Positions 6,599-62,452 of a stretch of 64,000 nucleotides of DNA are shown one piece after another; position 1 is the stretch's first letter, and the number at the start of each line of letters is the position of its first letter. The notes below the pieces were generated by a model that was given only the letters and a program-made list of their open reading frames with translations, was not told the DNA's origin and ran no database searches. Source of the stretch: Mytilus edulis (taxonomy: Eukaryota); assembly GCF_963676685.1 (NCBI RefSeq), contig NC_092349.1, forward strand, positions 75,906,473 through 75,970,472. Reading direction: 5' to 3'. Position numbers and translations under genes: made by a program.

Positions 6599-6694
6599 AA
6601 CAAAAACAAAGTACAGATAATGGAGATCCATGTATTAACTGACGAAGATGTGTTTAGACTTCACAGTCAGGCAGGATCTATTGATGAGCAGAAG
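6599..6694 (+). CDS. PARP4: PARP4-like exon 4 (linker region)
   Basis: ctttacag|aac ... cagaag|gtgaga. 96 nt, phase 0-0, open frame NKNKVQIMEIHVLTDEDVFRLHSQAGSIDEQK. Supported by phase consistency only; homology is weak. Confidence 0.35.
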
Positions 6695-25121: not shown

Positions 25122-25286
25122 GATGTGTTTACAGTTAGTGTAGGGAATTTACCTCCACAAGCGAGAGTTTTGATTAAGATAACCTACATATCAGAATTAC
25201 AGACAGAGAATGAAGCCATAGCATTTAGTTTACCTGCTTCAGTAGCACCATGGATACAAGATACAGCTCTTGCTCAGAAAACACAG
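25122..25286 (+). CDS. PARP4: PARP4-like exon 17 (VIT)
   Basis: ttttacag|gat ... acacag|gtaaat. Translation DVFTVSVGNLPPQARVLIKITYISELQTENEAIAFSLPASVAPWIQDTALAQKTQ matches human DVFTVSVGNLPPKAKVLIKITYITELSILGTVGVFFMPATVAPWQQD. Confidence 0.8.
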
Positions 25287-26208: not shown

Positions 26209-26331
26209 TCTGAGCTAACATCTTTGAAGGTCAAGGACACTGGAAGATGTGATCTGTCTTTACAAGTTGCCATGGAAATGCCCTTTGATATTAGAAATGT
26301 TAAATCACCAACACACAGAATTAAAGTCAAG
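26209..26331 (+). CDS. PARP4: PARP4-like exon 18
   Basis: ctttgcag|tct ... gtcaag|gtagtt. Translation SELTSLKVKDTGRCDLSLQVAMEMPFDIRNVKSPTHRIKVK matches human IGTKQSFSLTMSIEMPYVIEFIFSDTHELKQK. Confidence 0.65.
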
Positions 26332-27056
26332 GTAGTTGATTTTAGCAGACCATTGAGATTTGCTCTTTCTAGGGGGTCTGAAGGGGGGTCTGATCCCAGA
26401 TCCTACTTATATGTTTAGTGAGAATCCTGTATCCCACTTCTTGTTGCCATAACAGCGCAGGTAATTTTCCATGTCTCGCTTAATTATTAATCAACTTTCA
26501 CATGTCACGCTTTTAAAAAAATTGACCAATCCTGCGTCACACTTAGACCCCATTGAGACCAACTTTCTACATGTGACTTTATTTTGAAATACAACATCTC
26601 TCAAAGCATACTTATAAAAAGACTACTGATATACAAAATTGCTCTATCATTGAAAAGTTTTTGTGCAGATTTGATACTGATTACCTCCCTTTACACAATG
26701 GCTGTGCATTTTTCACGCGGCTGAAAACTGAATGATAATCCTGAATATATATGGTAGAGGGCGAGCAAACACATACAATTAATAGACTTAAATACTTTTA
26801 TAGCAGCCTACACACTTTTAAAGTCAAGATACAAGACAGTACGTGTACTTATCGAAACCATAAACTCTTGAACACGTTGTAAATTTGGATTTCCAAAATG
26901 GCGTCCTGGGACGGCAACGAAGTCTTAAAAAACATTAAAATTGACACGGATATGTCAAAGATAGATACAGAATAACCATCTAATTGTTTACCAATAAAAC
27001 TGAATAAGCGTACCGGTAAAGCAAAGAAATGTCAATTTGAGGCTATTGATGTAAAT

Positions 27057-28835: not shown

Positions 28836-29448
28836 CTTTGTATAATAACTAATGTCAATTTTATTCTACACATATATAATGTATATTGTTCATATTCATA
28901 TCACATAATTCTCTTTTTATTACAAATACATGTATATGCAGTAGAACTTGCATGTTCTATTTTTTTTTTTTTTTTATCATATAAAATTCAGGATGTCATA
29001 AATGAACAAACATTATATTGTAAACTTTTAATATTGTTCATTATTATTTGAAAAGTTAAAAGTCATATATAAATTCAACTTAGTTCTAAATAACATAGTG
29101 AATATCAAATAACGCAAGGATTGCCTTAATTTTATTCCCTTTATTACAATTGAATGTGTGAATTGCACACAAGGGAATTTTGGTACACTACTAACTAAGT
29201 TTATAAAAAGAAAGATAAAAAAAGGAATCAAAATCAAGTCAAGGACAAAAACAACTGATTTAACTTGACGGCCATTTAATTCTAATTCTTTAATTGGCAC
29301 CTTATAAAAAGGTTTATCTTTTTGCATATATTCTTTATCATATTGTTTATAAAATATTTATATACTTGGAAAGTATTTAAATAATTCTTTTTCATTTTGT
29401 TTTTAAATTTCTTTGATATTTAAAATAAATACAAGAAAAGAAGGGACT

Positions 29449-30906
29449 ATGTCACCAAGAACAGTCACATCATTAAAAATGTGCTTTCTTAATTTAGGGG
29501 GCCTTATGAACAAGGAGGGTAACAAATCGGATGATCCCCTTTTCTTAAACAAAATTGATAAATATGATTTGGCTTTTTTTGCTGAAACACACATTGGATA
29601 TGAGTCCAATATTCATAGAATAGGTCCTTTTAATTGTTATAATGTATGTAGACCTAAAACTAGGGCAAACAACAGATTTTTTGGTGGGTTGGCAGTATTA
29701 GTTAAAAAAAATATCAAACCTTATGTAAAAATTCTCAAAAACACTTGTACTGACATTATGTGGATAAAGTTAGAAAAGGATTTTTTTGGTTTTCAAAAAG
29801 ACTTATATATGTGTGTAGTGTATAACCCACCCTCAATGTCATCATATACTCAGGGACTCGACCGGGACATTACTGAATGTTTAGAACAGGAAACTGCAAA
29901 ATATATGAAAATGGGTAATGTTTTACTGTGTGGTGATTTTAATGCAAGAATTGCCAATTCCCCTGATTATATTTTAAATGATGATCAATCTTATTTACCT
30001 CTTTTTGATAACTATCCAATTGATAAGCAAATCTTGAAAAGACAAAGCAGTGATACAACAATTGATTCAAGGGGAAAGAGTCTATTAGATCTCTGTATTC
30101 TAAACCAGTTAAGGATACTAAATGGTCGAGTCCTAGGGGATGTTTTTGGAAAGTACACATGTTATACGCCAAACGGCAGTAGTGTGGTTGACTATGTGAT
30201 GGTGTCGGAGAGTATTCTGGATCAAATTTTATATTTTTATGTTCACAACTTTATGCCTACTATTTCAGATTGTCATTGTATACTGGAATGGGAAATGTCA
30301 AGTAAATTTACTGTTGATGATAATGATTGTAATATTAATATGTTTGATAAATCTCCAAATTTCATATGGTCAGATGAATCACCTACAAACTTTCAGACAG
30401 CTCTATTATTACCAGATATACAAACACAAATTGATACATTTAATAAAAGTATAATCAAAGAGTCTCAATCCTCTGTCGATGAGGCTGCAGCAGAATTATC
30501 ACATATTTTCCTGTCTGCTGCTACTAATTCTTTAAAAAGAAATAAACTAAGAAATAAGAAAATAAAGACAAAAAAATGGTTTGATGGAGATTTGTACCAT
30601 CTTCGAAACAAATTAATAAGTTACGGTAAAATATATTCAAAATTTCCTTATGACCCATTAGTGAGAGGTCACTATTATAAGCTTAATAAGCAATATTCTA
30701 AACTTAGAAAATTTAAGTATAAAGAATATAAAAAATCACTTGTTGAGCAGTTACAGAATCTACATGATGATAATCCTAAATCTTATTGGAAGTTAATTAA
30801 TGATTTAAAAAATAATGATAATAAGGACCATAGTTCTGCTGTGGCACCATCTGTGTGGGTTTCACATTTCAATGGATTATATCAATTACATGAGTCATTC
30901 AAGTAA
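29449..30906 (+). CDS. LINE ORF2 5' part: apurinic/apyrimidinic-like endonuclease domain
   Basis: Blocks FFAETH, LLCGDFNARI and SVVDYVMVS are APE/EEP endonuclease motifs. The first ATG is at 29449 inside the six-frame ORF 29413..30906, which ends at a TAA. Confidence 0.7.
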   Translation: MSPRTVTSLKMCFLNLGGLMNKEGNKSDDPLFLNKIDKYDLAFFAETHIGYESNIHRIGPFNCYNVCRPKTRANNRFFGGLAVLVKKNIKPYVKILKNTCTDIMWIKLEKDFFGFQKDLYMCVVYNPPSMSSYTQGLDRDITECLEQETAKYMKMGNVLLCGDFNARIANSPDYILNDDQSYLPLFDNYPIDKQILKRQSSDTTIDSRGKSLLDLCILNQLRILNGRVLGDVFGKYTCYTPNGSSVVDYVMVSESILDQILYFYVHNFMPTISDCHCILEWEMSSKFTVDDNDCNINMFDKSPNFIWSDESPTNFQTALLLPDIQTQIDTFNKSIIKESQSSVDEAAAELSHIFLSAATNSLKRNKLRNKKIKTKKWFDGDLYHLRNKLISYGKIYSKFPYDPLVRGHYYKLNKQYSKLRKFKYKEYKKSLVEQLQNLHDDNPKSYWKLINDLKNNDNKDHSSAVAPSVWVSHFNGLYQLHESFK

Positions 30907-30908
30907 GA

Positions 30909-32948
30909 GTGGCTAAGTTGGAAAAAAAGCTAGATAATCTTGAAAAAAATGTTTGTTTTAATAATCTTGATAAACTTATAACAGAGAAAGAAATTTCTTT
31001 TGCCATTTCTAAACTACGTTGTAACAAATCACCAGGCTTGGATAACATTTCAAACAATATGATTAAACACAGTCAAAATGTTTTACTATCGTCTCTTTCA
31101 AAAATATTTAATTCTTGTCTGTCTCATGGTTTATACCCAAGAAATTGGACCGAAGGTTATATTACAGTATTACATAAGTCAGGTGAAGTCACTGACCCAA
31201 ATAATTATAGAGGACTAACAATCACTAATGCAATTGGTAAGCTTTTTAACAGTATACTTAATATAAGGTGGGATAGTTTTTTAGAAGAAAATAATGTAAT
31301 TAATGATTGTCAAATAGGTTTCACAAGAAAGGCAAGAACATCTGACCATATGTTTGTTTTAAAATGTATTTTTGATAAATACTGTAATACTAAGGATGGG
31401 AGAGTGTTTGCTTGCTTTGTTGATTTTCATAAAGCTTTTGATAAAGTAATACATACAGGAATTAGAATTAAGCTGTTAGAGATTGGGGTTAGTTCAAGGT
31501 TTTATAGCGTTATAAAGAATATGTATCTTGAAACTAGATCTTGTATAAAAATACATGATAAAATAACTGAATTCTTTCAAACAAAGCTTGGTGTTAAACA
31601 AGGAGATAACTTGAGTCCTAACTTGTTTAAAATATTTATAAATAGCCTTCCAGACTATTTTACACGAACCAGAGATCCAATTATGCTGGATGGCAAACTC
31701 ATTCATTGCCTTATGTATGCTGATGACATTGTAATTTTATCTAACTCAGCTGAAGGACTACAAGAGAAATTAAATGAACTTCATAATTTTTGCAATGACT
31801 GGTGCTTAGATATAAATACTAAAAAAACTAAGGTGTTGATATTCAACAAGGCAGGCAGACATATCTCTCAAAAATTTATTTTCAACAAAGATGAGCTGGA
31901 GTGTGTATCTAATTATAAATATTTGGGTATCCAATTTAATGCATCATGTTCTTTTTCATATGCTCAGAATGATTTATACCAAAGAGCCTTAAAAGCATAC
32001 TTCAAACTATGTAATGATTTTTTAGTGCATAATCCTACTGTTAAAAATGCAATTCATGTTTTTGACCATACAATAAAGCCTATACTTTTATATGGGTGTG
32101 AAATTTGGGGATATTTCAATCCCTTTACTGCACGTTTAAAAAAAGAAAACATAACAGTGGATACAATTTACTCAAGGATACTTTGTGAAAAACTTCATAT
32201 TAAATTCTGCAAATATATTTTAGGCGTTAATAGGAAGAGTACAAACTTTGCAGTTTTGTCTGAATTAGGCTGTTTTCCACTTCACTATGATATAGTCAAA
32301 CATGTTTTAGGATATTGGCATCGTTTAGAAAATATTGGCTCATCATTTCCCTTGTTAAAAGCTGCATATAATTGTTCTAAAAAGCTATTTGAAACAAAAA
32401 AAACCTCTTGGTATGGATCAATTAATATTTTAAGGGAAAAAATGTCAGGCATAGAAAAACATATTCTTGAAAAATACTCAACATTTAAACTACACTGTGG
32501 GCAGATAGTTAAGGGATACTATACTGCATTGTGGAAAAAACAGCTAGACAAACATAAAGATGGTAAACTACGAACTTATGTAACATTCAAGTGCAACTAT
32601 GGTTTTGAAAATTATTTGTCAATAATTCGACATTTTGAGCAAAGGAAATGTATTACTAGATTAAGAATATCTGCTCACAAATTGCAAATTGAATCTGGTA
32701 GATACCAGGGTACTCTTCGACAAAACCGAATTTGTCTCAGGTGCACCTCAGGTGAGGTTGAGGATGAAGTTCATTTTTTATTTAAATGTGACACTCATTT
32801 ATTAAAAAGAGAGGAAATGATGCAAAATATATTAAAATCATGTCCAAACTTTCAAAATTTAAATATTGATAACAAATTAATTTGGATAATGAATAATGAG
32901 GATCCTAATGTACTATTTGCATTTTACAAATATATAGAAGATACTTAA
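30909..32948 (+). pseudogene. LINE ORF2 3' part: reverse transcriptase plus C-terminal zinc-finger-like domain, out of frame with the endonuclease part
   Basis: RT motifs are present (FVDFHKAFDKV; LMYADDIVILS; KTKVLIF). This ORF is in a different frame from the EN part (29413 vs 30909). A stop and a -1 frame change at 30906-30909 imply a frameshifted, probably dead ORF2 or a sequencing error. Confidence 0.6.
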
Positions 32949-34182
32949 GAATTAAAGTACAACTTAATCTGCAATAACTAATTCATTATAACTCTTTAAT
33001 ATGAATTTGGATACCCTGTTAAGCCTGCACAGATCATAAGAAGAATTTCAAATTCTTTGGCACCGTCCCTTGATGATCTTTGCTGGCTGGACACAGAATC
33101 TATAATCTTAGAAATATGTTTTAAAAATATATTTTCAATAATTAAGGAGCTTGACTCATCTGCATTAAGTACAAGTAGGGACTCCCCTTTAAGCACCGAC
33201 TCTTGGTGCTTTCTGCAGATAAGTCATATTAAATATCCTTTATTAAATAAACTTTGTTATTTGCAGTATACCTCATAGTCAAATGTGGGAGTGCTTAATT
33301 GCTTTGTTTTTTATTGGGTTCTTTTTGTATTTTTTTGTATTTTTATATATTGACATTTCTCCGCACAAACTACTAATGCCTCATGCTTGTCTTCTCAAAG
33401 TGAAGATACACTTACCGGGTGCACTTGAGTCATTTTCAACATAGTATTCATTGAATAATAATACATTGCTACTATTTCGTTGAGTGTATTTTCTGTGATA
33501 TATTATTTTATTTTATTATTTTTATAACACTTGTTACATATCTTTACTATGTGTGTATTGCATATGTTATTGTTTATAATAATATTGTCTGTATCATATG
33601 CCCTCCTGGGGCCCTAATTTGGTAAATAAAATATTCTATTCTATTCTATTCTATTCATATAATTTGAGTTAATGGCAGGGTGGAATATATTTTTTGACAT
33701 TATATAGCATCGTTTTCTTGTATCACCTAAGTTGAACAAAGGTATAATACATAAAAACATATTAATTAACATTACATTGTGTTGTACATTTGTTGAGGAA
33801 GCATTAAAGGTTATATTACAACAGTATGATCAGTATAGCCGACAGGTTAACATCAGAGAGAATCCAGATTGTGAAAAGTAAATTTGATTTATTATTTTGT
33901 TGAAAATTCCAATCAGTATGACATAGTTTACCTTGTATACTTTTAAATTCCTGTGAATTGTAGCTCTTTAGTCAATTAGGACTTATAGAACCATTTTCAA
34001 GTTTTCTGTAAGTCAAGTAATACTAATAAGAACGGGTTTGATTGTGTCTTGTTATCCCTATAAATTATAAAAATTGAGCATTAATTTCTACTGACTTACA
34101 AGTTTAAAGAAAAATCAGGTTGTAAACCTTGTTGCCACCTCTCATTAATGTTTTGTATTTGTGGTGCTGAAATCTTCTTCAG

Positions 34183-34317
34183 ACAACGGCCACCAAGGCA
34201 GTAGTGGAGTTACCTAAAAATAGCCAGCTAGATGATGGTTTTCAGCTATTGGTCACCATGGCAGAAATACATGTACCACGAATGTGGGTAGAAAATCATC
34301 CTAACAAGGACAGTCAG
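34183..34317 (+). CDS. PARP4: PARP4-like exon 19
   Basis: cttcttcag|aca ... agtcag|gtaacc. Translation TTATKAVVELPKNSQLDDGFQLLVTMAEIHVPRMWVENHPNKDSQ matches human RTDCKAVISTMEGSSLDSSGFSLHIGLSAAYLPRMWVEKHPEKESE. Confidence 0.75.
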
Positions 34318-34985: not shown

Positions 34986-35105
34986 GCCTGCATGCTAACA
35001 TTTTATCCGGAGTTTGATGCAGATTTTGACCCCCAACAGGAAGTTATCTATTTATTAGATATGTCTAATTCTATGAAAGGTCAAGCAGGGAGGGATGCTA
35101 AAAAG
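34986..35105 (+). CDS. PARP4: PARP4-like exon 20 (start of vWA domain)
   Basis: atttttag|gcc ... aaaaag|gtaatg. Translation ACMLTFYPEFDADFDPQQEVIYLLDMSNSMKGQAGRDAKK matches human ACMLVFQPDLDVDLPDLASESEVIICLDCSSSMEGVTFLQAKQ. The DxSxS residues are the vWA MIDAS motif. Confidence 0.75.
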
Positions 35106-35567: not shown

Positions 35568-35708
35568 GTTTTCCTATTGTCTTTGACAAAGTTACCAGAC
35601 AAGTCCAGTTTTAATGTGATCACATTTGGTACAACATTTAAAGAGCTATTCCCATCACCACAACTCAAAACAAAAGATTCAGTACAAAGAGCTACAAACT
35701 TTATTCAG
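35568..35708 (+). CDS. PARP4: PARP4-like exon 21 (vWA)
   Basis: gtttcag|gtt ... attcag|gtaaaa. Translation VFLLSLTKLPDKSSFNVITFGTTFKELFPSPQLKTKDSVQRATNFIQ matches human IALHALSLVGEKQKVNIIQFGTGYKELFSYPKHITSNTMAAEFIMS. Confidence 0.7.
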
Positions 35709-36036: not shown

Positions 36037-36224
36037 TCAACTGAGTGTGACCAAGGAGGAACCGTTGTCGTCACTTTGTTACAGTCCTTGTTCTTACTCA
36101 GTCCACCAGAGGGCAGCAGAAGTATCATTCTTATATCAGATGGTCACATGACTAGTGTTGAGGAAACTTTATCACTGGTCAGAAAAATGAGTGATCAGAA
36201 TCGACTTTTCACTGCAGGAGTTGG
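36037..36224 (+). CDS. PARP4: PARP4-like exon 22 (vWA)
   Basis: tttacag|tca ... gttgg|gtaggt. Translation ...GGTVVVTLLQSLFLLSPPEGSRSIILISDGHMTSVEETLSLVRKMSDQNRLFTAGVG matches human MGNTDFWKTLRYLSLLYPARGSRNILLVSDGHLQDESLTLQLVKRSRPHTRLFACGIG. Confidence 0.75.
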
Positions 36225-37077: not shown

Positions 37078-37177
37078 TCCTGCAGTAAATCATCACTTAA
37101 TGAAGACACTAGCGACATCTGGTGGAGGAACATACCAATATTACAACAACAAAACTAAGTCTAATTGGCAGTCAAAG
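37078..37177 (+). CDS. PARP4: PARP4-like exon 23 (vWA end)
   Basis: ttctcag|tcc ... tcaaag|gttagc. Translation (G)PAVNHHLMKTLATSGGGTYQYYNNKTKSNWQSK matches human STANRHVLRILSQCGAGVFEYFNAKSKHSWRKQ. Confidence 0.65.
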
Positions 37178-38563: not shown

Positions 38564-38731
38564 ATTGAAGGCCAGACTGAGCGAGCTTGTCAACCAGGTG
38601 TTTCTGGGGTCAGTGTACAGTGGATATACTATGCTAAACACAGTAACATAATCCAGGCTCCATGTATAATCCCATCTCTGTTTAATGGTACTCGCCAGGT
38701 AGTTTATGGGTTTGTCCCAAATTGTACACAG
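38564..38731 (+). CDS. PARP4: PARP4-like exon 24
   Basis: attccacag|att ... acacag|gtaaga. Translation IEGQTERACQPGVSGVSVQWIYYAKHSNIIQAPCIIPSLFNGTRQVVYGFVPNCTQ matches human IEDQMTRLCSPSCHSVSVKWQQLNPDVPEALQAPAQVPSLFLNDRLLVYGFIPHCTQ. Confidence 0.75.
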
Positions 38732-39179: not shown

Positions 39180-39260
39180 GCCAAGTTAAGTGCTTCAGTT
39201 GATGGTAATGAATTCTGTACCATGGTGTCTACCTCAGAACTTAATATGACCAAGGGCAAA
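39180..39260 (+). CDS. PARP4: PARP4-like exon 25
   Basis: tttctag|gcc ... ggcaaa|gtaagt. Translation AKLSASVDGNEFCTMVSTSELNMTKGK matches human ATLCALIQEKEFRTMVSTTELQKTTGT. Confidence 0.65.
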
Positions 39261-40725: not shown

Positions 40726-40806
40726 ATGTTACACCAGCTGACAGCTAGAGCGGTAATCAGAGATTATGAAGATGGCGTTTTCTCCAGTAATAATACACAG
40801 GATCAG
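40726..40806 (+). CDS. PARP4: PARP4-like exon 26
   Basis: gttcag|atg ... gatcag|gtacga. Translation MLHQLTARAVIRDYEDGVFSSNNTQDQ matches human MIHKLAARALIRDYEDGILHENETSHE. Confidence 0.75.
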
Positions 40807-42309: not shown

Positions 42310-42411
42310 GTCCAGAAATTGGAGAAGAAATCGTACATCATAGATCTAAGCAAAGAATACTCTATAGTTACTCCCTATACAAGCTTTATAGCTGTGGAAG
42401 AGAGAGAAAAA
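42310..42411 (+). CDS. PARP4: PARP4-like exon 27
   Basis: gctctaag|gtc ... gaaaaa|gtaagt. Translation VQKLEKKSYIIDLSKEYSIVTPYTSFIAVEEREK matches human KKQTLKSLIIKLSKENSLITQFTSFVAVEKRDE. Confidence 0.75.
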
Positions 42412-43580: not shown

Positions 43581-43688
43581 GATGAAGAGAAGACAGATGG
43601 ACCATCAATTGCTGATTTAGTTGCCAAGGAGACTGTTGATGTTTTACCTTATATGGACTGGCAGAATGCAGACATGTTTGAAGAGAAG
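43581..43688 (+). CDS. PARP4: PARP4-like exon 28
   Basis: aatgtag|gat ... gagaag|gtgtgg. Translation DEEKTDGPSIADLVAKETVDVLPYMDWQNADMFEEK matches human NESPFPDIPKVSELIAKEDVDFLPYMSWQGEPQEAV. Confidence 0.65.
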
Positions 43689-45821: not shown

Positions 45822-45968
45822 GACCCTGTTGTGGCTATTGAAGAATTATTATGTAAAGGAGCAATAGCTGAGACTTTTTCCCAGATGGAGGCTGAGCGGT
45901 GTTACTCGTCAATACTAGACTATGTTGATGACTTGAAAAAAGAAGAAAATAAAGATTTAAAATTTACT
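45822..45968 (+). CDS. Candidate PARP4-like exon 29 (divergent C-terminal region)
   Basis: ttttag|gac ... tttact|gtaaat. 147 nt, phase 0-0, open frame DPVVAIEELLCKGAIAETFSQMEAERCYSSILDYVDDLKKEENKDLKFT. Supported by splice signals and phase only; this region is poorly conserved in vertebrates. Confidence 0.35.
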
Positions 45969-47345: not shown

Positions 47346-47433
47346 GTAATGGAAAATGTTGTAAAGTTTTGTCAGAAGAGTGGAAGTGAGAATAGTATGG
47401 ACATCATGAAAACTTTCAAAGATATATTTCCTG
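47346..47433 (+). CDS. Candidate PARP4-like exon 30
   Basis: attacag|gta ... cctg|gtaagc. Open frame VMENVVKFCQKSGSENSMDIMKTFKDIFP. Phase 0 in, phase 1 out, matching the next candidate exon. Confidence 0.3.
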
Positions 47434-48209
47434 GTAAGCTGTTTAATATCAATTACAAGGACTATATATCATAATGAGGGAAAATATGTTTTTTTTATTT
47501 AAGGAGATGTCTAAAGTTGGTGATGGTTTTCACTATTCCCATTCAGGAGTTATAGTCTTTGTTTGATTGGAAAATGAAATTTGAAGTCATTTACATGAGA
47601 ACTGTATGTGCTAACCCAGCCACATATGTGCCTTATCCAAGTCTATAGTTTTGGCTTGTTGCTGAGTAACATATTTGTTTTTTATCAATTGTTTTGTTAT
47701 AACTAAGGCTGTTTTTTCAGTTGAATTGTTTCATATTTTCATGTCAGGGTCTTTAATAGCAGACTATATGGTATGATTTTTTCTCATTGTTTTATACGGT
47801 ATGGTTGCCTATAATTGTTTACATACACTTCATTTGAACTTTGGTGGATAGTTGTCGCATTGGAATCTCACCACGGCTCCTTACTTTTCTATTTTTATGT
47901 GCTTTGAAACGAAATTTTGCATAGTAGCTGTCGTTAACATCACATAAAATTAAGAATGGAATGGGAAATTGCCAAAGAGACAACAACTGGACCAAAGAGC
48001 AGAAAACAGCCGAAGGCCACCAATGGGTCTTCAATACAGAGAGAAAATCCTGCACTCAGCTTCAGCTGGCCCCTAAACAAAAATAGGGGCATACAGTGTT
48101 TAGAAAATTTTTAGAACCCCTTCCAATCCAAATAACTTTGCTTGTCACTACTGTATGTTTCCACTGAGATGGAACTAAGATCCCTTTACCTAAGTTTTAT
48201 TATCTCCAG

Positions 48210-48330
48210 GGGTACTCTCAATGAAATTACAGTATGAAGTTCCTTTAATTTCAATGCATGATAACTGCAAAGATATCCTGGGCTTTGCCCTCATTTTTTG
48301 TCAAGCCTTTGACTTGTCGAAAAAAGCGAG
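48210..48330 (+). CDS. Candidate PARP4-like exon 31 (MVP-interaction-like segment); 3' end unresolved
   Basis: tctccag|ggg, phase-compatible with the previous exon. Translation ...VPLISMHDNCKDILGFALIFCQAFDLSKK weakly resembles the human PARP4 C-terminus ECLLDLIATMLVLQFIRTRLEKEG. No convincing donor found. The downstream part of ORF 48221..48478 runs into a repeat that recurs at 48582-48680. Confidence 0.3.
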
Positions 48331-48810
48331 ACATAGCGACCCTACATTCCCTTTGGCTTTGGCGTTGTCGGCGGTGGCGTCCACAAATATCCACTCTGTG
48401 ATTAAAGTTTTTGAAATTTTAATGATTTTCTTTAACTGGCCTGGATTCAAACAAACTTGGACAGAAGCTTGTTTATGATCATAAGATATAGTATCCAAAA
48501 GTAAAACTTAAAAAAAACAACATTTTTTCCGTATTTTACTTAAAAAATGGACTTAGTTTTTCTGCCAGGAAACATTACATTCACTCTGTGGTTAAAGTTT
48601 TTAAAATTTTAATAACTTTCTTAAACTAGCCTGGATTTGTACTTGGACAGAAGCTTGTTTGTGATCAAAAGCGTGACACTGGGTTCCACAGAACCCTTCC
48701 ATTTTTTTTTTTTGAGACTTTATAATAAACATCCAATCAATATGCACAAATATCACATATATAAACAAGTATAAAGGACCTTCTACAAGTATATTGATTG
48801 TTTATTACAG

Positions 48811-49000
48811 ACACTAGAAGTTTGTTTGTGAAGACTCTGACAGGTAAAACTATTGGAGGAGTAGAACTACTTGCCTCTGATACAATAGAACAAGTCAAGG
48901 TCAAGATACAAGAATTAGAAGGGATCCCAATAGATCAACAGAGATTGGTTTTTGATGGAAAACAGCTAGAAGATGGTCATACATTAGAGGATTACAGCAA
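48811..49000 (+). CDS. Ubiquitin-like domain, first exon (residues ~3-60 of the ubiquitin fold)
   Basis: Acceptor ttattacag|ac. Translation (D)[63 protein letters not shown] aligns to ubiquitin [58 protein letters not shown]. The initiator Met must lie in an upstream exon. The donor near 49001 (aag|gttaac) is uncertain. Confidence 0.5.
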
Positions 49001-50083
49001 GTTAACATTTTGTTTTCTACTAATATTACTGTGGATTCATTATTGTTCATTGGATACAAATTTTCGTGGATGATATACAGTTTTCAAATATAGGTCAACC
49101 TCAAAAGCCTCTGAAATAAATTGAGCTTTTGCCATTTGATAAAAGACTTTTCGTTTTGAATTTTCCTTAGAAATTCGTTAGTTTTGATATTTTACTGTCA
49201 AAGATCTGTCTTAAACACTAAAAAGAAAAACATTCATGATCAGACATGACCAAAACAAAAATGTGCAGATAGAAAAAAGTTAAATACTGTCAAAATTAAT
49301 TTTCTCTGTAATAATCATTTTATGATAATTTTTAAAGCTAGGCAATTGGCCTTATTGGTGTTGCCTTCATGCCATATTTGTCCCTGACCGATTCAATTAC
49401 GTCTGCTAAGTTGATTATTTATCAACAAAAAGATAAGATTATGGCATTAGACCAGAGAAAGTTATCCATTGATGTCACAAAAATAAACTTAGATTTCATT
49501 CCAAAACTACAAAATATCTTCTGCAAGTGTTAATGACTGCATCAGGAAAATTTGAGATAATGACACTTTTCCTGTTTTATTAAACTTATTGCTTTTTCAA
49601 AACAAGCTAAGGAAAGAGATTAAACATTTTTTGATACTTCTATGTAAATAAGATTTGAATTCAATGCAATTGGTAAAATATCACATTTTTTGTGTTGAAA
49701 AAAACCCAACCAAAGTGACATTTCTTTGAGGATGTCAGTACACAACAATTTGTGAAAATAACATTCTTTCCATAGACTACATGCATTTGTATATTTTCTA
49801 ATTTTTGTTCTATTTACACATTTCTTGATTGGTGTGTGAAAAAAATTTCTCCTCACTAGTTTTAATAATATCTGTTGATCAAAATTCAATTGTAACGTGA
49901 AGTCTTCTTGGTTTCTTCTGAACTTGAGATCCTCCTATTGTGACGTCATGAAAAATTGTGCGCACCCTCTTTAGTTAGGGTTCTTGTTCTTAGTGTATGC
50001 TTGAAATTTGCAACTAAATGTTTAGTAACCAGCGTTGGTTGTGTAAGTCATTAAGTTTAAGATAATGATTAATTCTATTACAG

Positions 50084-51426
50084 GAATAACAAATGAAAGT
50101 TCAATTCATATGGTATTACGTTTAAGAGGAGGACCTGATCCTTTTTCTACAACTTTTCAATCATCAGGATCACAACCACTTTCATTGCCGGGTCAGATTC
50201 AGCAGCAACTACAAGAAAATTTGAAAGCCAAGTTTCAGGAAAAACAACAAGTGGTGCAGAATCAGGTTCAAGAACTAGGACAACAGGTGTTTGATGAGCG
50301 ACAACAAAATTTAGTAGTAGAGCAACTCCATTCCTTGTATAAACCATCAAGACCTGATCCATTACCTTTGTTGCAGTCCAATGTTTATCAACAACAACAG
50401 CAAATGTTGGGTTCCAATGTACAGCAACCACAGCAAATGTTTCAGCCCCAGGTTCAACAACAACAGCAAATGTTTCAGTCCCAGGTTCAACAACAACAGC
50501 AAATGTTTCAGCCCCAGGTCCAACAACAACAGCAAATGTTTCAGCCCCAGGTTCAACAACAACAGCAAATGTTTCAGCCCCAGGTTCAACAACAACAGCA
50601 AATGTTTCAGCCCCAGGTTCAACAACAACAGCAAATGTTTCAGCCCCAGGTTCAACAACAACAGCAAATGTTTCAGCCCCAGGTTCAACAACAACAGCAA
50701 ATGTTTCAGCCCCAGGTTCAACAACAACAGCAAATGTTTCAGCCCCAGATTCATCAACAACAGCAAATGTTTCAGTCACAAGTTAAGCAAAAACAGCAAA
50801 TGTTGCAGTCCCAGTTTCAGCAACAAGAGCAAAGGTTTCAGCCATGGGTTCAGCAACAACAACAACAATCTGCAGCTTGTGTCAGGTCTTTTAGTCCATA
50901 TTATTTTACCAAAAGTTGTTCTACTAAAAGTAGGAGATATGAACCTTTAAATCCGAAAGGTTTTAGTTTTGGGAGCCAGGTTACAGCAACTAATGAATTA
51001 TTTGGTCAACAGTCAAGCAGTGTTAGTGCACCTTTTAGTGGTTCTAATTTTGATAGTGTGCGATCATATGGGATGATTCCTAGCCAGGCAGAGACAACTC
51101 AAAATATATATGGTGGAGGTGGTGGTAGTGAAGTCGGAAGTGGATTTGGAAGTGGTTTCAGTTTTGGATTTCAGCAGCCACAGTTAAAACCGCCATCAAT
51201 GGCGAGTTTTGACTCAATTCAGTCTTCTAATGTGGCATATGGGGGCTTATTTGGGAGTGAGCCAGTAGGTGAAAGAGCAGCAGATACATACCAAGATAAA
51301 GATGAAACAGCCCAGGATGTATTACCTCTTAGAACTGACATGCCAAGTGGTGGCTTTGAATATAAAGAGGTAGACTATCCTGATACTGTGGATTTCATTA
51401 TTTTCTTGGATACCAATTTTCATTGA
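50084..51426 (+). CDS. Ubiquitin-like C-terminus (HMVLRLRGG) continuing into a Gln-rich 11-aa repeat region and a Gly/Ser-rich tail
   Basis: Acceptor ctattacag|ga. Translation ITNESSIHMVLRLRGGPDP... then 10 tandem copies of QQQQMFQPQVQ (a 33-bp DNA unit, 50443-50775), then FGSQ/FGSG-like G/S/F-rich sequence. A stop codon sits at 51424-51426. A phase-0 donor (aaagag|gtagac, 51369/51370) could instead splice to the exon at 52294. There is a 1-nt phase mismatch with the upstream Ub exon under canonical GT-AG. Confidence 0.5.
50443..50775 (+). repeat. 33-bp coding minisatellite (caacaacaacagcaaatgtttcagccccaggtt)x10
   Basis: Near-perfect tandem copies. Occasional c/t differences (cagtcc vs cagccc) mark individual units. 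The repeat generates spurious long ORFs in other frames and on the minus strand (50147..50779, 50362..50766, 50381..50950). Confidence 0.9.
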
Positions 51427-52293
51427 TTAATGAAAAATTGCATTTTCATTGATATTTGATTTGATTGTTTTGTCAAATCTACATGTATGCAAACTCTATA
51501 TCATTTTGACACCAGCAATATAACAAAATATAAAAGCATTTAAAAAGACAAACAAGATCATGAGATTAATAAGTTTAGAAAGAATTGATGTTGAAAGACA
51601 AAACATTTTTTTTTGCGATGATTTGACATTAGACATGTTTGAACTGAGAAAATGAATATAAAGGAAATATGTACTAAAAAATTATCACAAAAAAGGCCAT
51701 ATGTGTAAAGTCTGTTTACACTAGGGACTATATTCGTAGACAACGAAAATCAAAGGACAATAACTGTGTCCTTGGACCTGATAGGACAGAAAAACTTGAC
51801 CAATCTTTATAAAACTTTGAATAACCTAAGCTTAGGTAATTATGAGATAGTTTGCCAAGTTTCATGGCCATATGACAATTATTAGAGAAACTAGGGTCAT
51901 TTTAGTATTGACATTTGGATTTTTATTTTTGACGTATAAATTAAATATCTTCAACTGTCAAGATTTTGGCCTAAAAATTTGAAATTTTGCATAAATTTGC
52001 CTTTTAAATGCCCTTGAATATTATATATTAAGTATTATAAGCATCTGAACACTCATTTTATTTATCAGATGTATTGTAATTATTCCAAAGTCAAATTTAT
52101 ATGAGCCTATGCCTGAAAATAGAGATTTTCCAATTCAGGGAATCCTATAACTAAACACTATTTAACTGGAAAAATTTTGTTTCCTTGAAGTTTTTGCTTA
52201 GTGCTTGAATAATTTGCTAATAATCATTAAACATATGTTTATTTAAAAATTGTACAGACTAGAGAATTAAGAATGAAATAATTACTATTAAAG

Positions 52294-52416
52294 GTTAAAA
52301 GAAAAAAGCAATCAGCCAGAAAGTCAACTGGTGGTAAATGTCCTAGAATACAGGTTACTGGTAAACTAGCATCCACAGAAGCTTTGAGAGATGACCAATC
52401 TGCCTCAGTCAGTCAG
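52294..52416 (+). CDS. Exon encoding a histone H3 N-terminal tail mimic (KQSARKSTGGKCPR)
   Basis: ttaaag|gtt ... gtcag|gtggtt. 123 nt, phase 0-0. Translation VKRKKQSARKSTGGKCPRIQVTGKLASTEALRDDQSASVSQ. The core matches H3 residues 4-17 (KQTARKSTGGKAPR) at 12 of 14 positions. Confidence 0.45.
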
Positions 52417-53536: not shown

Positions 53537-53683
53537 GAATTGGGGTCAATAGTTGAAGAACAAAAGAAGATTCCAGATAGGTATGGACCAAGGAAGAGTG
53601 CTCCTATAGTGGAAGAAATTCATATACCAGATACATCTTCTGAGGAAGAATCATCAGGGGAATCATCTGATGATCATGAAAGT
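53537..53683 (+). CDS. Exon encoding a PRKSAP motif (H3K27-region-like) plus an acidic Ser/Glu-rich tract
   Basis: caacag|gaa ... gaaagt|gtgagt. 147 nt, phase 0-0. Translation ELGSIVEEQKKIPDRYGPRKSAPIVEEIHIPDTSSEEESSGESSDDHES. Confidence 0.4.
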
Positions 53684-56701: not shown

Positions 56702-56902
56702 GACACATACAAAAGTCCAGGATTCTCTTATAATACAGCAGGGAAGTCCACAGGAGGATCAGCTCCAGCAATTACAAAACCTAAATCAGCTGTTCTTGAT
56801 CTGGTATACAAAAGTCCAGGATTCTCTTATAATACAGCTGGGAAGTCCACAGGAGGATCAGCTCCAGCACTTACAAAACCTAAGTCAGCTGTTCTTGATC
56901 AG
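56702..56902 (+). CDS. Tandemly duplicated 102-nt exon (2 x 34 codons) encoding GKSTGGSAPA(I/L)TKPKSAVLD
   Basis: ctttgtag|gac ... gatctg|gtatac (56803/56804), then a second copy ending gatcag|gtatac (56902/56903). Both copies keep a GT donor and the frame. The pair could be read as one 67-codon exon or as alternative exons. Translation DTYKSPGFSYNTAGKSTGGSAPAITKPKSAVLDL / VYKSPGFSYNTAGKSTGGSAPALTKPKSAVLDQ. Confidence 0.45.
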
Positions 56903-57194
56903 GTATACAATGGCTTTCTTAACCATTCACTACAGATAATAGACATAAATTATTCTTTGTAATCATAATGAATATTTGGAGATTGCATAGACAGATCTAG
57001 AGTATCTTGTTTGGATTCTGAAATGTTCTGGCCTGAGAACACAGTTATTTTGTAGAGCGTGCATTTCTTTTAGATGATAAATTAAAGTTTTAAAAATCCC
57101 ACTGGTAATTTCTCAATAACATATTTACAGTGTGTTGTACTAGCTTTGGGACAAATTATAGAAAAAGTTTTAAAAAATGGACAAATTTAAGAGC

Positions 57195-60100
57195 AAATCT
57201 GACATGAGGTAAAATTGTTTATCAGGTCAAGATCTATCTGCCCTGAAATTTTCAGATGAATCGTACAATTGCTGCCTCTGAATTGGTAATTTTAAGGAAA
57301 TTTTGCTGTTTTTTGTTATTATCTTGAATATTATTAAAGATAGAGATAAACTGTAAACAGCAATAATGTACAACAAAGTAAGACCTAAAAATAAGTCAAC
57401 ATGACCAAAATGGTCAATTGACCCCCTTAAGGAGTTATTGTCCTTTATAGTCAATTTTTAACAATTTTCATAAAATTTGTAAATTTTTACTAACATTTTC
57501 CACTGAAACTTAACTGGGCCAAGTCCATTATAGATACAGACAATTGTAAGCAGCAAGAATGTTCAGTAAAGTAAGATGTACAAACACATCACCATCACCA
57601 AAACACAATTTTATCATGAATCCATCTGCGTCCTTTGTTTAATATTCACATAAACCAAGGTGAGCGACACAGGCTCTTTAGAGCCTCTAGTTCGTAAATC
57701 TTAGTAATCTTTTAGAAAAATCTTCTCCTCTGAAACTACTGGGCCAAATTTAACCAAACTTGGCCACAATCATCATTGGGGTATCTAGTTTAAAAAATGT
57801 GTGATGTGACCCTGCCAACCAACCAAGATGGCCGCCATGGCTAAAAATAGAACATAGGGGTAAAATGCAGTTTTTGGCATTTTCCACTGAAACTTAACTG
57901 GGCCAAGTCCATTATAGATACAGACAATTGAAAGCAGCAAGAATGTTCAGTAAAGTAAGATGTACAAACACATCACCATCACCAAAACACAATTTTATCA
58001 TGAATCCATCTGCGTCCTTTGTTTAATATTCACATAAACCAAGGTGAGCGACACAGGCTCTTTAGAGCCTCTAGTTCGTAAATCTTAGTAATCTTTTAGA
58101 AAAATCTTCTCCTCTGAAACTACTGGGCCAAATTTAACCAAACTTGGCCACAATCATCTTTTGGGTATCTTGTTTAAAAAATGTGTGGCGTGACCCTGCC
58201 AACCAACCAAGATGGCCACCATGACTAAAAATAGAACATAGGGGTGAAATGTAGATTTTGGCTTATATCTCTGAATCCAAAGCATTAAGAGCAAATCTGA
58301 CATGGTATAAAATTATTCATCAAGTGTAAATCTATCTGCCCTGAAATTTTCAGACAAATCGGACAACCTGTTGTTGGGTTGCTGCCCCCGAATTAGTAAT
58401 TTTAAGGAAATTTTGCAGATTTTGGTTGTTATCTTGAATATTATTATAGATAGAGATAAACTGTAAACAGCAATAATGTTCAGCAAAATAAGATCTACAA
58501 ATAAGTCAACATGACCAAATTGTCAATTGACCCCTTAAGGAGTTATTGTCCTTTATAGTCAATTGCTAACAATTTTCGTAATTTTTTGTTAATTTTTGTT
58601 GTAAATTTTTAGGAAATATTTTCCACTGTAATTACTGGGCCAAGTTCATTATAGATAGAGATAATTGTAGCAACAAGAATGTTCAGTAAAGAAAGATCTA
58701 CAAACACATCACCATCACCAAAACACCATTTTGTCATGAATTTATCTGTGTCCATTGTTGATATGCACATAGACCAAGGTGAGCGACACAGGCTCTTGAG
58801 AGCCTCTAGTTCATAAATTTGAGTAATCTTTTACAAAAATCTTCTCCTCTGAAACTACTGGGCCAAATTAATCCAAACTTGGCCACAATTATTTTTGGGG
58901 TATCTAATTTAAAAAATGTGTCTGGTGACCCGGCCAACCAACCAAGATGGCCGACATGGCTCAAAATAGAATATAGGGGTCAAATGCAGTTTTTGGCTTA
59001 AAACTCAAAAACCAAAGCATTTAGAGCAAATCTGACATATGGGGTTAAATTGTTTATCAGGTCAAGATCTATCTGCCCTCAAATTTTCAGATGAATCAGA
59101 CAACCCGTTGTTGGGTTGCTGCCCCCGAATTGGTAATTTTAAGAAAATTTTGCTGTTTTTGGTTATTATCTTGAATATTATTATAGATAGAGATAAACTG
59201 TAAACAGCAATAATGTTCAGCAAAGTAAGATTCACAAATAAGTCAACATGACCGAAATGGTCAGTTGACCCCTTTAGGAGTTATTGCCCTTTATAGTCAA
59301 TTTTTAACCATTTTTCGTAAATCTTAGTTATCTAATACAAAAAACGTCTACTCTGAAACTGCTTGGCCAAATTAATCCAAACTTGACCACAATCATCTTT
59401 TGGGTATCTTGTTTAAAAAATGTGTGGCGTGACCCGGCCAACCAACCAAGATGGCCACCATGGCTAAAAATAGAACATAGGGGTGAAATGTAGATTTTGG
59501 CTTATATCTCTGAAACCAAAGCATTAAGAGCAAATCTGACTGGGGTAAAATTATTCATCTAGTAAAAATCTATCTGCCCTGAAAGTTTCAGACAAATCGG
59601 ACAACCTGTTGTTGGGTTGCTGCCCCCGAATTAGTAATTTTAAGGAAATTTTGCAGATTTTGGTTATTATCTTGAATATTATTATAGATAGAGATAAACT
59701 GTAAACAGCAATAATGTTCAGCAAAATAAGATCTACAAATAAGTCAACATGACCAAATTGTCAATTGACCCCTTAAGGAGTTATTGTCCTTTATAGTCAA
59801 TTGCTAACAATTTTCGTAATTTTTTGTTAATTTTTGTTGTAAATTTTTAGGAAATATTTTCCACTGTAATTACTGGGCCAAGTTCATTATAGATAGAGAT
59901 AATTGTAGCAACAAGAATGTTCAGTAAAGAAAGATCTACAAACACATCACCATCACCAAAACACCATTTTGTCATGAATTTATCTGTGTCCATTGTTGAT
60001 ATGCACATAGACCAAGGTGAGCGACACAGGCTCTTGAGAGCCTCTAGTTCATAAATTTGAGTAATCTTTTACAAAAATCTTCTCCTCTGAAACTACTGGG

Positions 60101-62080
60101 CCAAATTAATCCAAACTTGGCCACAATTATTTTTGGGGTATCTAATTTAAAAAATGTGTCTGGTGACCCGGCCAACCAACCAAGATGGCCGACATGGCTC
60201 AAAATAGAATATAGGGGTCAAATGCAGTTTTTGGCTTAAAACTCAAAAACCAAAGCATTTAGAGCAAATCTGACATATGGGGTTAAATTGTTTATCAGGT
60301 CAAGATCTATCTGCCCTCAAATTTTCAGATGAATCAGACAACCCGTTGTTGGGTTGCTGCCCCCGAATTGGTAATTTTAAGAAAATTTTGCTGTTTTTGG
60401 TTATTATCTTGAATATTATTATAGATAGAGATAAACTGTAAACAGCAATAATGTTCAGCAAAGTAAGATTCACAAATAAGTCAACATGACCGAAATGGTC
60501 AGTTGACCCCTTTAGGAGTTATTGCCCTTTATAGTCAATTTTTAACCATTTTTCGTAAATCTTAGTTATCTAATACAAAAAACGTCTACTCTGAAACTGC
60601 TTGGCCAAATTAATCCAAACTTGACCACAATCATCTTTGGGGTATCTTGTTTAAAAAATGTGTGGCGTGACCCGGCCAACCAACCAAGATGGCCACCATG
60701 GCTAAAAATAGAACATAGGGGTGAAATGTAGATTTTGGCTTATATCTCTGAAACCAAAGCATTAAGAGCAAATCTGACTGGGGTAAAATTATTCATCAAG
60801 TAAAAATCTATCTGCCCTGAAAGTTTCAGACAAATCGGACAACCTGTTGTTGGGTTGCTGCCCCCGAATTAGTAATTTTAAGGAAATTTTGCAGATTTTG
60901 GTTATTATCTTGAATATTATTATAGATATAGATAAACTGTAAACAGCAATAATGTTCAGCAAAATAAGATCTACAAATAAGTCAACATGACCAAATGGTC
61001 AATTGACCCCTTAAGGAGTTATTGTCCTTTATAGTCAATTGCGAACAATTTTCATAATTTTTTGTTAACTTTTGTAAATTTTTAGGAAATATTTTCCACT
61101 GTAATTACTGGGCCAAGTTCATTATAGATAGAGATAATTGTAGCAACAAGAATGTTCAGTAAAGAAAGATCTACAAACACATCACCATCACCAAAACACC
61201 ATTTTGTCATGAATTTATCTGTGTCCATTGTTGTTATGCACATAGACCAAGGTGAGCGACACAGGCTCTTGAGAGCCTCTAGTTTATAAATTTGGGTAAT
61301 CTTTTACAAAAATCTTCTCCTCTGAAACTACTGGGCCAAATAAATCCAAACTTGGCCACAATTATCTTTGGGGTATCTAATTTAAAAAATGTGTCCAGTG
61401 ACCTGGCCAACCAACCAAGATGGCCACCATGGCTAAAAATAGAATATAGGGGTCAAATGCAGTTTTTGGCTTATAACTCAAAAACCAAAGCATTTAGAGC
61501 AAATCTTACATGGGGTTAAATTGTTTATCAGGTCAAGATCTATCTGCCTTCAACTTTTCAGATGAATCAGACAACCCGTTGTTGGGTTGCTGCCCCTGAA
61601 TTGGTAATTTTAAGAAAATTTTGCTGTTTTTGGTTATTATCTTGAATATTATTATAAATAGAGATAAACTGTAAACAGCAATAATGTTCAGCAAAACAAG
61701 ATATACAAAAAAGTCAACATGACCAAAATGGTCAGTTGACCCCTTTAGGAGTTATTGTACAGCAAAATAAGATCTACAAATAAGTTTTACAACCAAATTA
61801 GTCAATTGACCCCTTAAGGAGTTATTGCCCTTTATAGTTAATTTTTAACAGTTTTCATAAATTTTTGTAAATTTTTAGAAAATATTTTCCAATGTAATTA
61901 CTGGGCCAAGTTCATTATAGATAGAGATAATTGTAGCAACAAGAATGTTCAGTAAAGTAAGATCTACAAAAAGATCACCATCACCATAACACAATTATGT
62001 CATGAATTTATCTGTGTCAATTGTTCAATATGCACATAGACCAAGGTGAGCGACACAGGCTCTTGAGAGCCTCTAGTTTA
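57195..62080. repeat. ~4.9-kb satellite with higher-order periodicity of ~1.24 kb, in the intron between the duplicated exon and the 62201 exon
   Basis: Identical six-frame ORFs at 58819, 60057 and 61292 (offsets 1238 and 1235). The array is built from two or three related ~380-620-bp subunits sharing the block tcttctcctctgaaactactgggccaaatt.a.ccaaacttggccacaat...gccaaccaaccaagatggcc.ccatggctaaaaatagaa.ataggggt. Copies are about 90-97% identical. Confidence 0.85.
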
Positions 62081-62200: not shown

Positions 62201-62452
62201 GAATCTGAATTAAATGAATGGTTAGAAGAACAACTAGAACCTGACACAGATAGTAGTAAAACCATAATGCCTGCTAGATCTGGAGACAAGGGTTCTGGAA
62301 AGTTATTAGCTACTAAGGCTGCTAGGAAAAGTGCCCCTTCAACTGGAGATGTCATAACTACTAAGAGAACTAGGAGGAAAGGGCGTATTCAGTTAGCAAC
62401 CAAGGCTGCAAGAAAAGGTGCTCCAGAAACAGGAGGTGTACCTTTGCCAGAG
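62201..62452 (+). CDS. Exon encoding two consecutive histone H3 tail mimics (LATKAARKSAPSTG / LATKAARKGAPETGGV)
   Basis: atttgcag|gaa ... ccagag|gtaatt. 252 nt, phase 0-0. Translation ESELNEWLEEQLEPDTDSSKTIMPARSGDKGSGKLLATKAARKSAPSTGDVITTKRTRRKGRIQLATKAARKGAPETGGVPLPE. Compare H3 residues 17-35, RKQLATKAARKSAPATGGV. Confidence 0.5.

Follow-up and report, generated by a model that had tools for sequence, protein, structure and literature searches.

A likely PARP4 orthologue of the mussel Mytilus edulis with an in-line ubiquitin domain followed by proline and a coding minisatellite

We analysed a 64-kb stretch of Mytilus edulis DNA (contig NC_092349.1; hereafter the window), which is AT-rich with a G+C content of about 32%. 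The analysis centred on positions 48811–51426 of the plus strand, where two exons encode a ubiquitin-like domain, a 33-bp repeat, and a Gly/Ser/Phe-rich tail. This region likely represents exons 28 and 29 of a Mytilus-type mussel orthologue of PARP4 that carries an in-line, non-released ubiquitin domain. Together with downstream exons encoding histone-H3-like motifs, previously regarded as a neighbouring "H3-mimic gene", it probably forms one PARP4 gene of at least 57.5 kb (4944–62452), which starts at the first in-frame ATG (4944) and extends beyond 62452. For 4944–51369, a homology-guided junction search yielded a model of 29 exons with consistent phases and a stop-free frame of 5190 nt (1730 codons). 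The exon gaps in this model equal those of the guide protein, and the junctions are mostly canonical GT-AG.

The domain order of the rebuilt protein is BRCT–PARP–VIT–vWA–linker–ubiquitin. Pfam placed the N-terminal BRCT domain at residues 6–90 (BRCT_2, 28.4 bits, cut-off 27.3; BRCT, 23.1 bits, cut-off 21.3), the PARP catalytic domain at 336–510 (E = 7.7e-26), VIT at 569–679 (E = 2.9e-38), VWA at 816–973 (VWA_3, E = 7.5e-23), and ubiquitin at 1244–1316; VIT and vWA form the ITIH-like region after the catalytic domain. The translation contains the H-Y-E contexts LLMHSS, GSGIYFSD, and DDEFVIY, which we take to correspond to the contexts of H862, Y896, and E988 in PARP1. Plus-strand open reading frames (ORFs) 5' of the ubiquitin exons resemble BRCT, PARP, VIT, and vWA exons, and a query composed of the PARP and VIT exons retrieved PARP4 as all of its top named matches (birds, frogs, fishes, and others), with 45–50% identity and 100% query coverage. 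The linker following vWA is homologous to the same part of crinoid, urchin, and vertebrate PARP4, and a search with it retrieved PARP4 from lungfish, shark, urchin, Nematostella, Sycon, and amphioxus. In tblastn comparisons, PARP4 of the unionid bivalve Sinanodonta woodiana (P0243, KAL3858028.1, 2293 aa) was collinear with the window from 4953 (residue 10) to 50139 (RLRGGPE). A gene model from Mytilus coruscus (P0039) matched exons at 40.7, 42.3, 43.6, 45.8, and 47.3 kb, followed by the two ubiquitin exons, the tail as far as 51369, and further exons at 53.5, 56.7, and 62.2 kb. The coordinates of all features are given in Table 1.

The spliced product of exons 28 and 29 matched the whole Pfam ubiquitin profile (PF00240, positions 1–72 of 72; E = 2.8e-23; 81.9 bits, cut-off 25.4). 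This domain search confirmed the ubiquitin fold across two exons that had been proposed in the original prediction. Against solved ubiquitin chains, the domain scored about 100 bits (E about 3e-28), and its identity to human ubiquitin is 70.7% (75 aligned residues). It retains Leu8, His68, Val70, Arg42/72/74, Lys6/11/27/29/48, and the RLRGG end; departures comprise Ile44 to Val, Lys63 to Asn, Lys33 to Leu, and a one-residue Gly insertion after GKTI. The split between the exons had been placed after DYSK, where no GT is present. Instead, a GC-AG intron separates them, the sole junction compatible with both the ubiquitin alignment and the M. coruscus model, with the exon ending at 48996 (ACA/GCAAGT), the acceptor ag at 50082–50083, and the next exon starting at 50084, so that the split codon A+GA encodes Arg. 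The junction product EDY-R-ITNES is the same as in the M. coruscus model (EDYRITNES). Two other junctions were rejected: a GT-AG junction (49000/gt to ag/50100) would delete ITNES, break the ubiquitin alignment, and conflict with the M. coruscus model, and the automatic pick 49030/50127 likewise broke the alignment and was contradicted by that model.

The ubiquitin exons had also been proposed as the 5' part of a gene, which did not hold. Exon 28 lacks an ATG, an in-frame stop lies just 5' of its acceptor, and its ORF opens at 48798. Exon 27 (47346–47433) ends in phase 1 (CCT G/gtaagc), and its last base is needed to complete the first codon of exon 28 (G + AC = Asp), giving KDIFP-D-TRSLF, as in P0039 (KDIFPDTR). 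About 1240 PARP4 residues precede the ubiquitin domain. At its other end, RLRGG ends at 50133 and is directly followed by Pro-Asp-Pro (50134–50142), in agreement with the proline that had been noticed right after GG; at least 413 residues follow GG, and the ORF stays open through the 1472 nt of both exons. Type 1 modifiers carry GG at a mature C-terminus freed by cleavage, whereas here GG is internal and followed by Pro-Asp-Pro. The domain is embedded in a larger polypeptide by gene structure here, and in other organisms by an uninterrupted ORF and a single transcript, as in type 2 proteins with an integral ubiquitin-like domain, and it would be expected to stay unreleased. As a separate observation, skipping of exon 28 would keep the frame (G+GA = Gly) and delete most of the ubiquitin domain; with its 1-1 phase, an isoform without this domain is therefore possible.

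Behind the ubiquitin domain, Tandem Repeats Finder (TRF) detected an array at 50388–50865 with a period of 33, 14.5 copies, 90% matches, and a score of 739. Its core (50449–50745) consists of seven identical units and two units with one mismatch, flanked by two degenerate units upstream and three to four downstream; all units are in frame. The ten near-perfect repeats described earlier are therefore real as an in-frame array, but the number differs, with 14.5 copies by TRF and nine units with at most one mismatch. Where long ORFs cross the repeat on the minus strand or in another frame, they were rejected as mechanical by-products of it. M. coruscus has one or two copies of QQQQMFQP, and S. 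woodiana has none. The array thus shows the features of coding minisatellites, i.e., an in-frame 33-bp unit, identical copies, and a copy number that differs between species. Given the seven identical units here versus one or two and none in the other species, it is a recent, lineage-specific, and frame-keeping expansion, which distinguishes the window lineage from other PARP4 orthologues with a ubiquitin domain. Most likely, it altered the length of a flexible spacer in a near-neutral way, and it is, by itself, ordinary.

Gln makes up 30.5% of the 413 residues after GG. The FG/GS-rich low complexity described earlier was recovered as a G/S/F-rich tail, i.e., the last 147 residues before the donor at 51369, which contain 14.3% G, 15.6% S, and 8.2% F, and five FG dipeptides versus 1.7 expected. 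In composition alone, these segments resemble Q-rich prion-like regions and nucleoporin FG-repeat regions; unlike the latter, the mussel tail contains only five FG. The proposed phase-0 donor at 51369/51370 (AAAGAG/GTAGAC) is present and is used in the M. coruscus model. A scan of the AT-rich window for poly(A) hexamers gave 366 matches versus 382 expected, a count that cannot address termination after 51426.

Table 1. Features of the PARP4 locus in the window. Positions are those of the window.
Feature	Position	Strand	Evidence and remarks
PARP4 exons 1–2, ATG and BRCT	4944–5081, 5362–5560	+	tblastn with S. woodiana residues 10–117; Pfam residues 6–90
PARP4 exons 3–10, poorly conserved region, helical/regulatory and ADP-ribosyltransferase catalytic domain	6016–6203, 7518–7703, 10172–10351, 12108–12268, 13344–13472, 14766–14864, 15545–15731, 16364–16517	+	collinear tblastn, junction search, Pfam; exons 3–4 and their junctions uncertain
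PARP4 exons 11–15, VIT and following beta region	19291–19421, 23289–23415, 24563–24654, 25122–25286, 26209–26331	+	tblastn, junction search, Pfam VIT
PARP4 exons 16–22, vWA/ITIH-like	34183–34317, 34986–35105, 35568–35708, 36037–36224, 37078–37177, 38564–38731, 39180–39260	+	tblastn, junction search, Pfam VWA_3
PARP4 exons 23–27, post-vWA linker	40726–40806, 42310–42411, 43581–43688, 45822–45968, 47346–47433	+	tblastn; 95% identical to P0039
Exon 28, Asp-Thr-Arg and equivalent of ubiquitin residues 2–59	48811–48996 (186 nt, phase 1-1)	+	acceptor ttacag/AC; Pfam; P0039
GC-AG intron within ubiquitin domain, 1087 nt	48997–50083	+	donor GCAAGT, acceptor ttctattacag
Exon 29 start, last ubiquitin strand (R)ITNESSIHMVLRLRGG	50084–50133	+	translation, Pfam, ubiquitin alignment
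Pro-Asp-Pro, then 83-residue Q/E/K-rich spacer	50134–50382	+	translation; 74% identical to M. coruscus with indel
33-bp in-frame minisatellite, unit QVQQQQQMFQP (11 codons)	50383–50877	+	TRF, unit-by-unit table
Gly/Ser/Phe-rich low-complexity segment to phase-0 donor AAAGAG/gtagac	50926–51369	+	73% identical to P0039 residues 543–698
Read-through, 18 codons and TGA, translated only upon intron retention	51370–51426	+	stretch outside M. coruscus model
Candidate cassette exon encoding RKKQSARKSTGGKCPR, H3 residues 2–17-like	52294–52416 (123 nt, phase 0-0, ag/gt borders)	+	absent from P0039
Downstream exon, acidic, Ser-rich	53537–53683 (147 nt, phase 0-0)	+	P0039 tblastn
Downstream exon with 99-bp tandem duplication, two TAGKSTGGSAP motifs	56702–56800 or 56702–56899, phase 0-0	+	P0039 tblastn, TRF
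Downstream exon, two H3 19–35-like motif copies	62201–62452 (252 nt, phase 0-0)	+	P0039 tblastn; donor GAG/gtaatt

The exons downstream of 51369 encode peptides with a strong likeness to the tail of histone H3, which applies to RKKQSARKSTGGKCPR (H3 residues 2–17) and RIQLATKAARKGAPETGGV (H3 residues 18–35). Further H3-like copies in these tail exons are TAGKSTGGSAP, present twice, and LLATKAARKSAPSTGDV. In S. woodiana, the PARP4 tail (P0243 residues ~1878–1975) contains the H3-like sequences GKAAPRKHLATKAARKSA and SKQTARSTS; H3-like motifs recurring within the same protein in this species argue for a conserved feature of bivalve PARP4. From the 51369 donor, the M. coruscus model continues into the exons at 53.5, 56.7, and 62.2 kb and skips the exon at 52294. 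A splice from 51369 to 52294, as originally proposed, is phase-compatible, yet it is not used in the only related gene model. The broader idea of a single protein combining ubiquitin-like domain, polyQ, and H3 mimic stood in that one gene is most likely (M. coruscus joins the parts, all phases are 0-0, and the S. woodiana tail is H3-like), but the gene is a much larger PARP4 gene. The good donor at 62452 (GAG/gtaatt) implies that it continues further. A full-text literature search for "histone mimic" and PARP4 returned nothing beyond one unrelated preprint.

Several other features were noticed within the gene. The 99-bp duplication (56707–56910, 96% identical) copies most of its exon including the splice donor, resulting in two phase-0 donors (56800 and 56899) and a doubled H3-like motif; M. 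coruscus has a single copy of the unit. A tandem array with a unit of ~1.24 kb (~57500–61700) fills the intron before exon 62201, with the same ORFs at 58313, 59551, and 60789 and at 58609, 59847, and 61082; TRF also reported a period of 384 bp at 57494–58262. The PARP4 intron 26332–34182 harbours a retrotransposon of the long interspersed nuclear element (LINE) type on the same strand (27057–32948, plus), which looks intact and comprises frames for ORF1 (592 aa), an endonuclease (497 aa, Exo_endo_phos), and a reverse transcriptase (679 aa, RVT_1) with Pfam matches. P0039 opens (residues 1–140) with the MLHQLTARAVIRDYEDG exon (window 40726–40806) repeated five times almost unchanged, which suggests a local exon duplication or an assembly/annotation artefact in the M. 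coruscus genome.

To map the distribution of the architecture, we searched 1.84 billion representative proteins exhaustively with HMMER, using the 175-residue post-vWA linker as query. The search matched 321 proteins; among the 150 listed, most are PARP4 of 1700–2500 residues with the linker at about 1100–1300. These 150 were scanned with ubiquitin, the window domain, and a hidden Markov model (HMM) of PARP4-linked ubiquitin domains. Two other searches contributed less: a word-indexed search with linker and tail gave two matches and missed P0039, is uninformative on absence, and was superseded by the exhaustive search, and a 509-aa full query was swamped by polyubiquitins, with P0039 as the sole useful match. 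Among the matches listed, ten proteins carry a ubiquitin domain right after the linker. They derive from M. coruscus (P0039), S. woodiana (KAL3858028.1), the gastropods Biomphalaria glabrata (A0A2C9KRG3) and Plakobranchus ocellatus (GFO43316.1), a Diplonema japonicum transcript (P0351, EP01064_P035529), and five metagenome or read-archive sequences. Pfam recovered the same five domains (BRCT, PARP, VIT, VWA, and ubiquitin) in S. woodiana, B. glabrata, and the D. japonicum transcript. In the orthologues, the ubiquitin domain lies 70–180 residues past the SFIAVEER motif of the linker and keeps RLRGG or KLRGG. The dedicated HMM detected no ubiquitin domain (nothing below E 0.7) in the representatives from lungfish, shark, teleost, amphioxus, sea urchin, Nematostella, Sycon, Cavenderia, rotifer, and the oyster Saccostrea.

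Two of the carriers demonstrate the architecture independently of gene prediction. The Diplonema protein corresponds to one assembled transcript, and a metagenomic scaffold (L001; ENA ERZ23486787 scaffold_8576) encodes VIT, vWA, linker, and ubiquitin in one uninterrupted ORF of 645 codons, with BRCT and PARP just upstream and an FG-rich, polyQ-containing tail just downstream (4202–9811). This scaffold stems from an intron-poor eukaryote; its PARP4 locus adjoins short-chain dehydrogenase genes, and its ubiquitin domain shows the "GKTIG" change of bivalves. M. edulis also has a second PARP4-like gene (P0249, CAG2205451.1), whose linker is 58% identical and in whose 1730-residue model no ubiquitin domain was detected; ubiquitin-bearing and ubiquitin-free PARP4 may thus coexist as paralogues in Mytilus. 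Each PARP4-linked ubiquitin domain is closer to ubiquitin than to any other of them, which is predicted by one ancient gain and by several captures alike. The shared departures GKTIG and TVxxLK offer a hint of a common origin. PARP4–ubiquitin orthologues are already present in public databases, with a ubiquitin-family match on record for P0039. A survey of the PARP family (PMC2964712) and a second paper (PMC10450202) contain no mention of a ubiquitin domain in clade 5 PARPs, and full-text searches combining PARP4 or vPARP with "ubiquitin-like" returned nothing else relevant and no paper describing the architecture.

Conservation is uneven along the protein. Compared to M. coruscus, identity reaches 95% in the linker and 93.6% in the ubiquitin domain, whereas it falls to 73–74%, with indels, in the sequence that follows; nothing 3' of the ubiquitin domain aligned to S. 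woodiana in tblastn, and tails can be aligned only within Mytilus. The residue after GG is Pro in seven of the ten PARP4-linked ubiquitin domains (GGPDP, GGPEI, GGPEP, GGPVE, and GGPTP), including those of bivalves and Diplonema. The earlier idea that this proline blocks processing fits such conservation.

Human PARP4 consists of BRCT-WGR-HD-ART, an ITIH-like region (VIT, vWA), a long disordered and fast-evolving segment (the tether), and a domain interacting with the major vault protein, with positive selection in primates at residues 1504–1521 within the disordered segment (PMC10450202). The mussel protein resembles human PARP4/vPARP (clade 5; PMC10450202, PMC2964712) in the order of BRCT, PARP, VIT, and vWA, in the post-vWA linker, and in the long low-complexity region after the core, but differs in having a ubiquitin domain, a Q-rich minisatellite, and H3-like motifs inside its tether. 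The ubiquitin domain, Q-repeat, and G/S/F stretch occupy the equivalent of the human tether, and the contrast between the conserved linker and ubiquitin domain and the divergent sequence that follows fits this position. As for the wider context, the gill of Mytilus is rich in major vault protein (PMC5302490).

With no start of its own, a position 1240 residues into the protein, and Pro after GG, the ubiquitin domain would not be released. We propose that it acts as a permanently attached ubiquitin signal in the disordered tether of PARP4, which may be read by ubiquitin-binding domains, extended on Lys29/Lys48 by ligases of the ubiquitin-fusion-degradation (UFD) type, or both. Reading or chain extension would control the location or lifetime of PARP4. 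With Leu8, Val44, His68, Val70, and Lys6/11/27/29/48 kept, the domain could bind receptors and be chain-extended; it might serve as a docking surface for ubiquitin-binding proteins, as a seed for chain extension, or as both. A close parallel is provided by engineered Ub-Pro fusions, in which ubiquitin is not removed and the fusion is degraded via Lys29/Lys48 of the ubiquitin moiety by the UFD pathway (PMC9703124). The mussel domain is likewise joined via GG-Pro to the next polypeptide and has Lys29 and Lys48; unlike in those N-terminal, engineered constructs, it is internal and natural. Polyubiquitin, Ub-eL40, and Ub-eS31 share the near-ubiquitin sequence (70.7% identity) and the RLRGG end, but the mussel domain is internal, has Pro after GG, and is not a precursor of free ubiquitin. 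Rad23, ubiquilins, parkin, BAG6, and OASL use an integral ubiquitin fold as a docking surface. Their domains are much less ubiquitin-like, and most lack a GG end, whereas the mussel domain is almost ubiquitin itself.

A different emphasis would make the FG-containing tail the functional core in place of the ubiquitin domain. The tail would act like the FG region of a nucleoporin, or phase-separate like a prion-like region, and so bring PARP4 or vaults to nuclear pores or condensates. We consider this unlikely, though it is compatible with a permanently attached ubiquitin and does not exclude it. FG is enriched in PARP4 tails of many lineages with or without the ubiquitin domain (30 in sea urchin, 10 in the L001 scaffold, 8 in lungfish, and 7 each in B. 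glabrata and M. coruscus), the tail in the window is 30.5% Gln, and disordered PARP regions have been discussed as possibly condensate-related (PMC10450202). The window contains only five FG, however, far below the 30 of the sea urchin tail, and the sequence is not alignable beyond Mytilus. Independently of the window, PARP4 of the sea urchin Lytechinus pictus (P0244) contains about 30 FG at residues ~1970–2300 in a 9-residue GSQSQGSLFGG-type repeat, and FG-rich stretches also occur in the PARP4 tails of the L001 scaffold (8213–9811), B. glabrata, M. coruscus, lungfish, and shark. FG-type low complexity may hence be an as yet undescribed trait of PARP4 tethers in general.

The main rival to a permanently attached ubiquitin is a deubiquitinase-cleavage site. 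Here, a deubiquitinase would cut after GG; one product would be a catalytic/ITIH-like part with ubiquitin-GG at its end, the other a free tail with the low-complexity, H3-mimic, and vault-binding segments. The perfectly canonical RLRGG end of a domain 70.7% identical to ubiquitin, the Leu or Gly after GG in two gastropod orthologues, and the suggestion that the human tether is a possible site of proteolysis or modification (PMC10450202) are in line with such a processing module. On the other hand, Pro follows GG in seven of ten lineages from bivalves to Diplonema, and it is the only residue known to keep ubiquitin from being removed in linear fusions (PMC9703124). We therefore regard processing as quite improbable.

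Much less probable still is a separate gene 3' of PARP4, in which the ubiquitin-like exons would begin their own transcript (ubiquitin-like domain, polyQ, and H3 mimic) and the joined models would be annotation chimeras. P0039 lacks the PARP/VIT/vWA part, most PARP4 proteins have no ubiquitin domain, and the intron 47434–48810 is long enough for a promoter. Nevertheless, exon 28 lacks an ATG and is preceded by an in-frame stop just 5' of its acceptor, its phase-1 start is exactly completed by the donor of exon 27, P0039 itself joins five PARP4 linker exons to the ubiquitin exon, and vWA, linker, and ubiquitin are united in one ORF in L001 and in one transcript in Diplonema. Least probable of all is a non-functional relic: exons that arose by capture of a ubiquitin fragment, or that are decaying, would be skipped in the mRNA, and the repeat would be an ordinary intronic minisatellite. 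In its favour, exon 28 is phase-symmetric and can be skipped in frame, the repeat is evolutionarily young, and the GC donor is non-canonical. Against it, the two exons are open over 1472 nt including the in-frame repeat, two Mytilus species share 93.6% identity in the ubiquitin domain versus 73% in the flanking tail, and a unionid bivalve and gastropods have the same domain in the same place.

A PARP4 orthologue with an in-line, non-released ubiquitin domain remains the reading we favour, and the following points weigh against it. Regarding the gene model, the intron inside the ubiquitin domain requires a non-canonical GC donor. Exons 3–5 (6–10 kb) are poorly supported, with low junction scores, a GC donor at 6203, and exons that may be missing (6.2–10.2 kb), and the exon 10 donor at 16517 (aaataa/GTAGGT) has a weak exon-side context. 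The structure in the window species was read from genomic DNA. P0039 is itself a prediction that omits the 52294 exon and begins within the linker, indicating that the M. coruscus annotation was split from the PARP part. Furthermore, a vault-binding C-terminal domain was not found downstream of 51.4 kb with the C-terminal 300 residues of 51 full-length representatives, although mollusc C-termini are not BLAST-alignable to vertebrate ones. Regarding the domain, it occurs in only three of the 51 full-length PARP4 representatives of the search set and is lacking in the oyster representative and the M. edulis paralogue; this rarity implies that it is dispensable for core PARP4 function. Two gastropods carry Leu or Gly after GG, and the evidence that Ub-Pro withstands deubiquitinases comes from N-terminal ubiquitin fusions in yeast and mammals.

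A wider scenario, which we put forward as speculative and rather doubtful, would be that PARP4 was ancestrally ubiquitin-fused, that molluscs, diplonemids, and other protists retained a non-removable GG-Pro ubiquitin in the tether between enzyme core and vault-binding end, which vertebrates lost, and that the bivalve tether, which also carries copies of the H3 tail (ARKS of H3 7–10 and 25–28), displays ubiquitin together with histone-type modification sites. If true, the tether would connect PARP4 or vaults with receptors for ubiquitin, ligases that build ubiquitin chains, and readers or writers of chromatin marks. On the narrower reading of a permanently attached ubiquitin, mussel PARP4 would provide a naturally occurring equivalent to the engineered Ub-Pro fusions, with ubiquitin receptors, UFD ligases, and p62-type adaptors as possible partners. 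Its patchy occurrence in molluscs, a diplonemid, and other eukaryotes bears on the evolution of the PARP4 family. PARP4 is the least understood PARP; a near-canonical ubiquitin that is kept uncleavable by a conserved proline would provide a testable handle on it.

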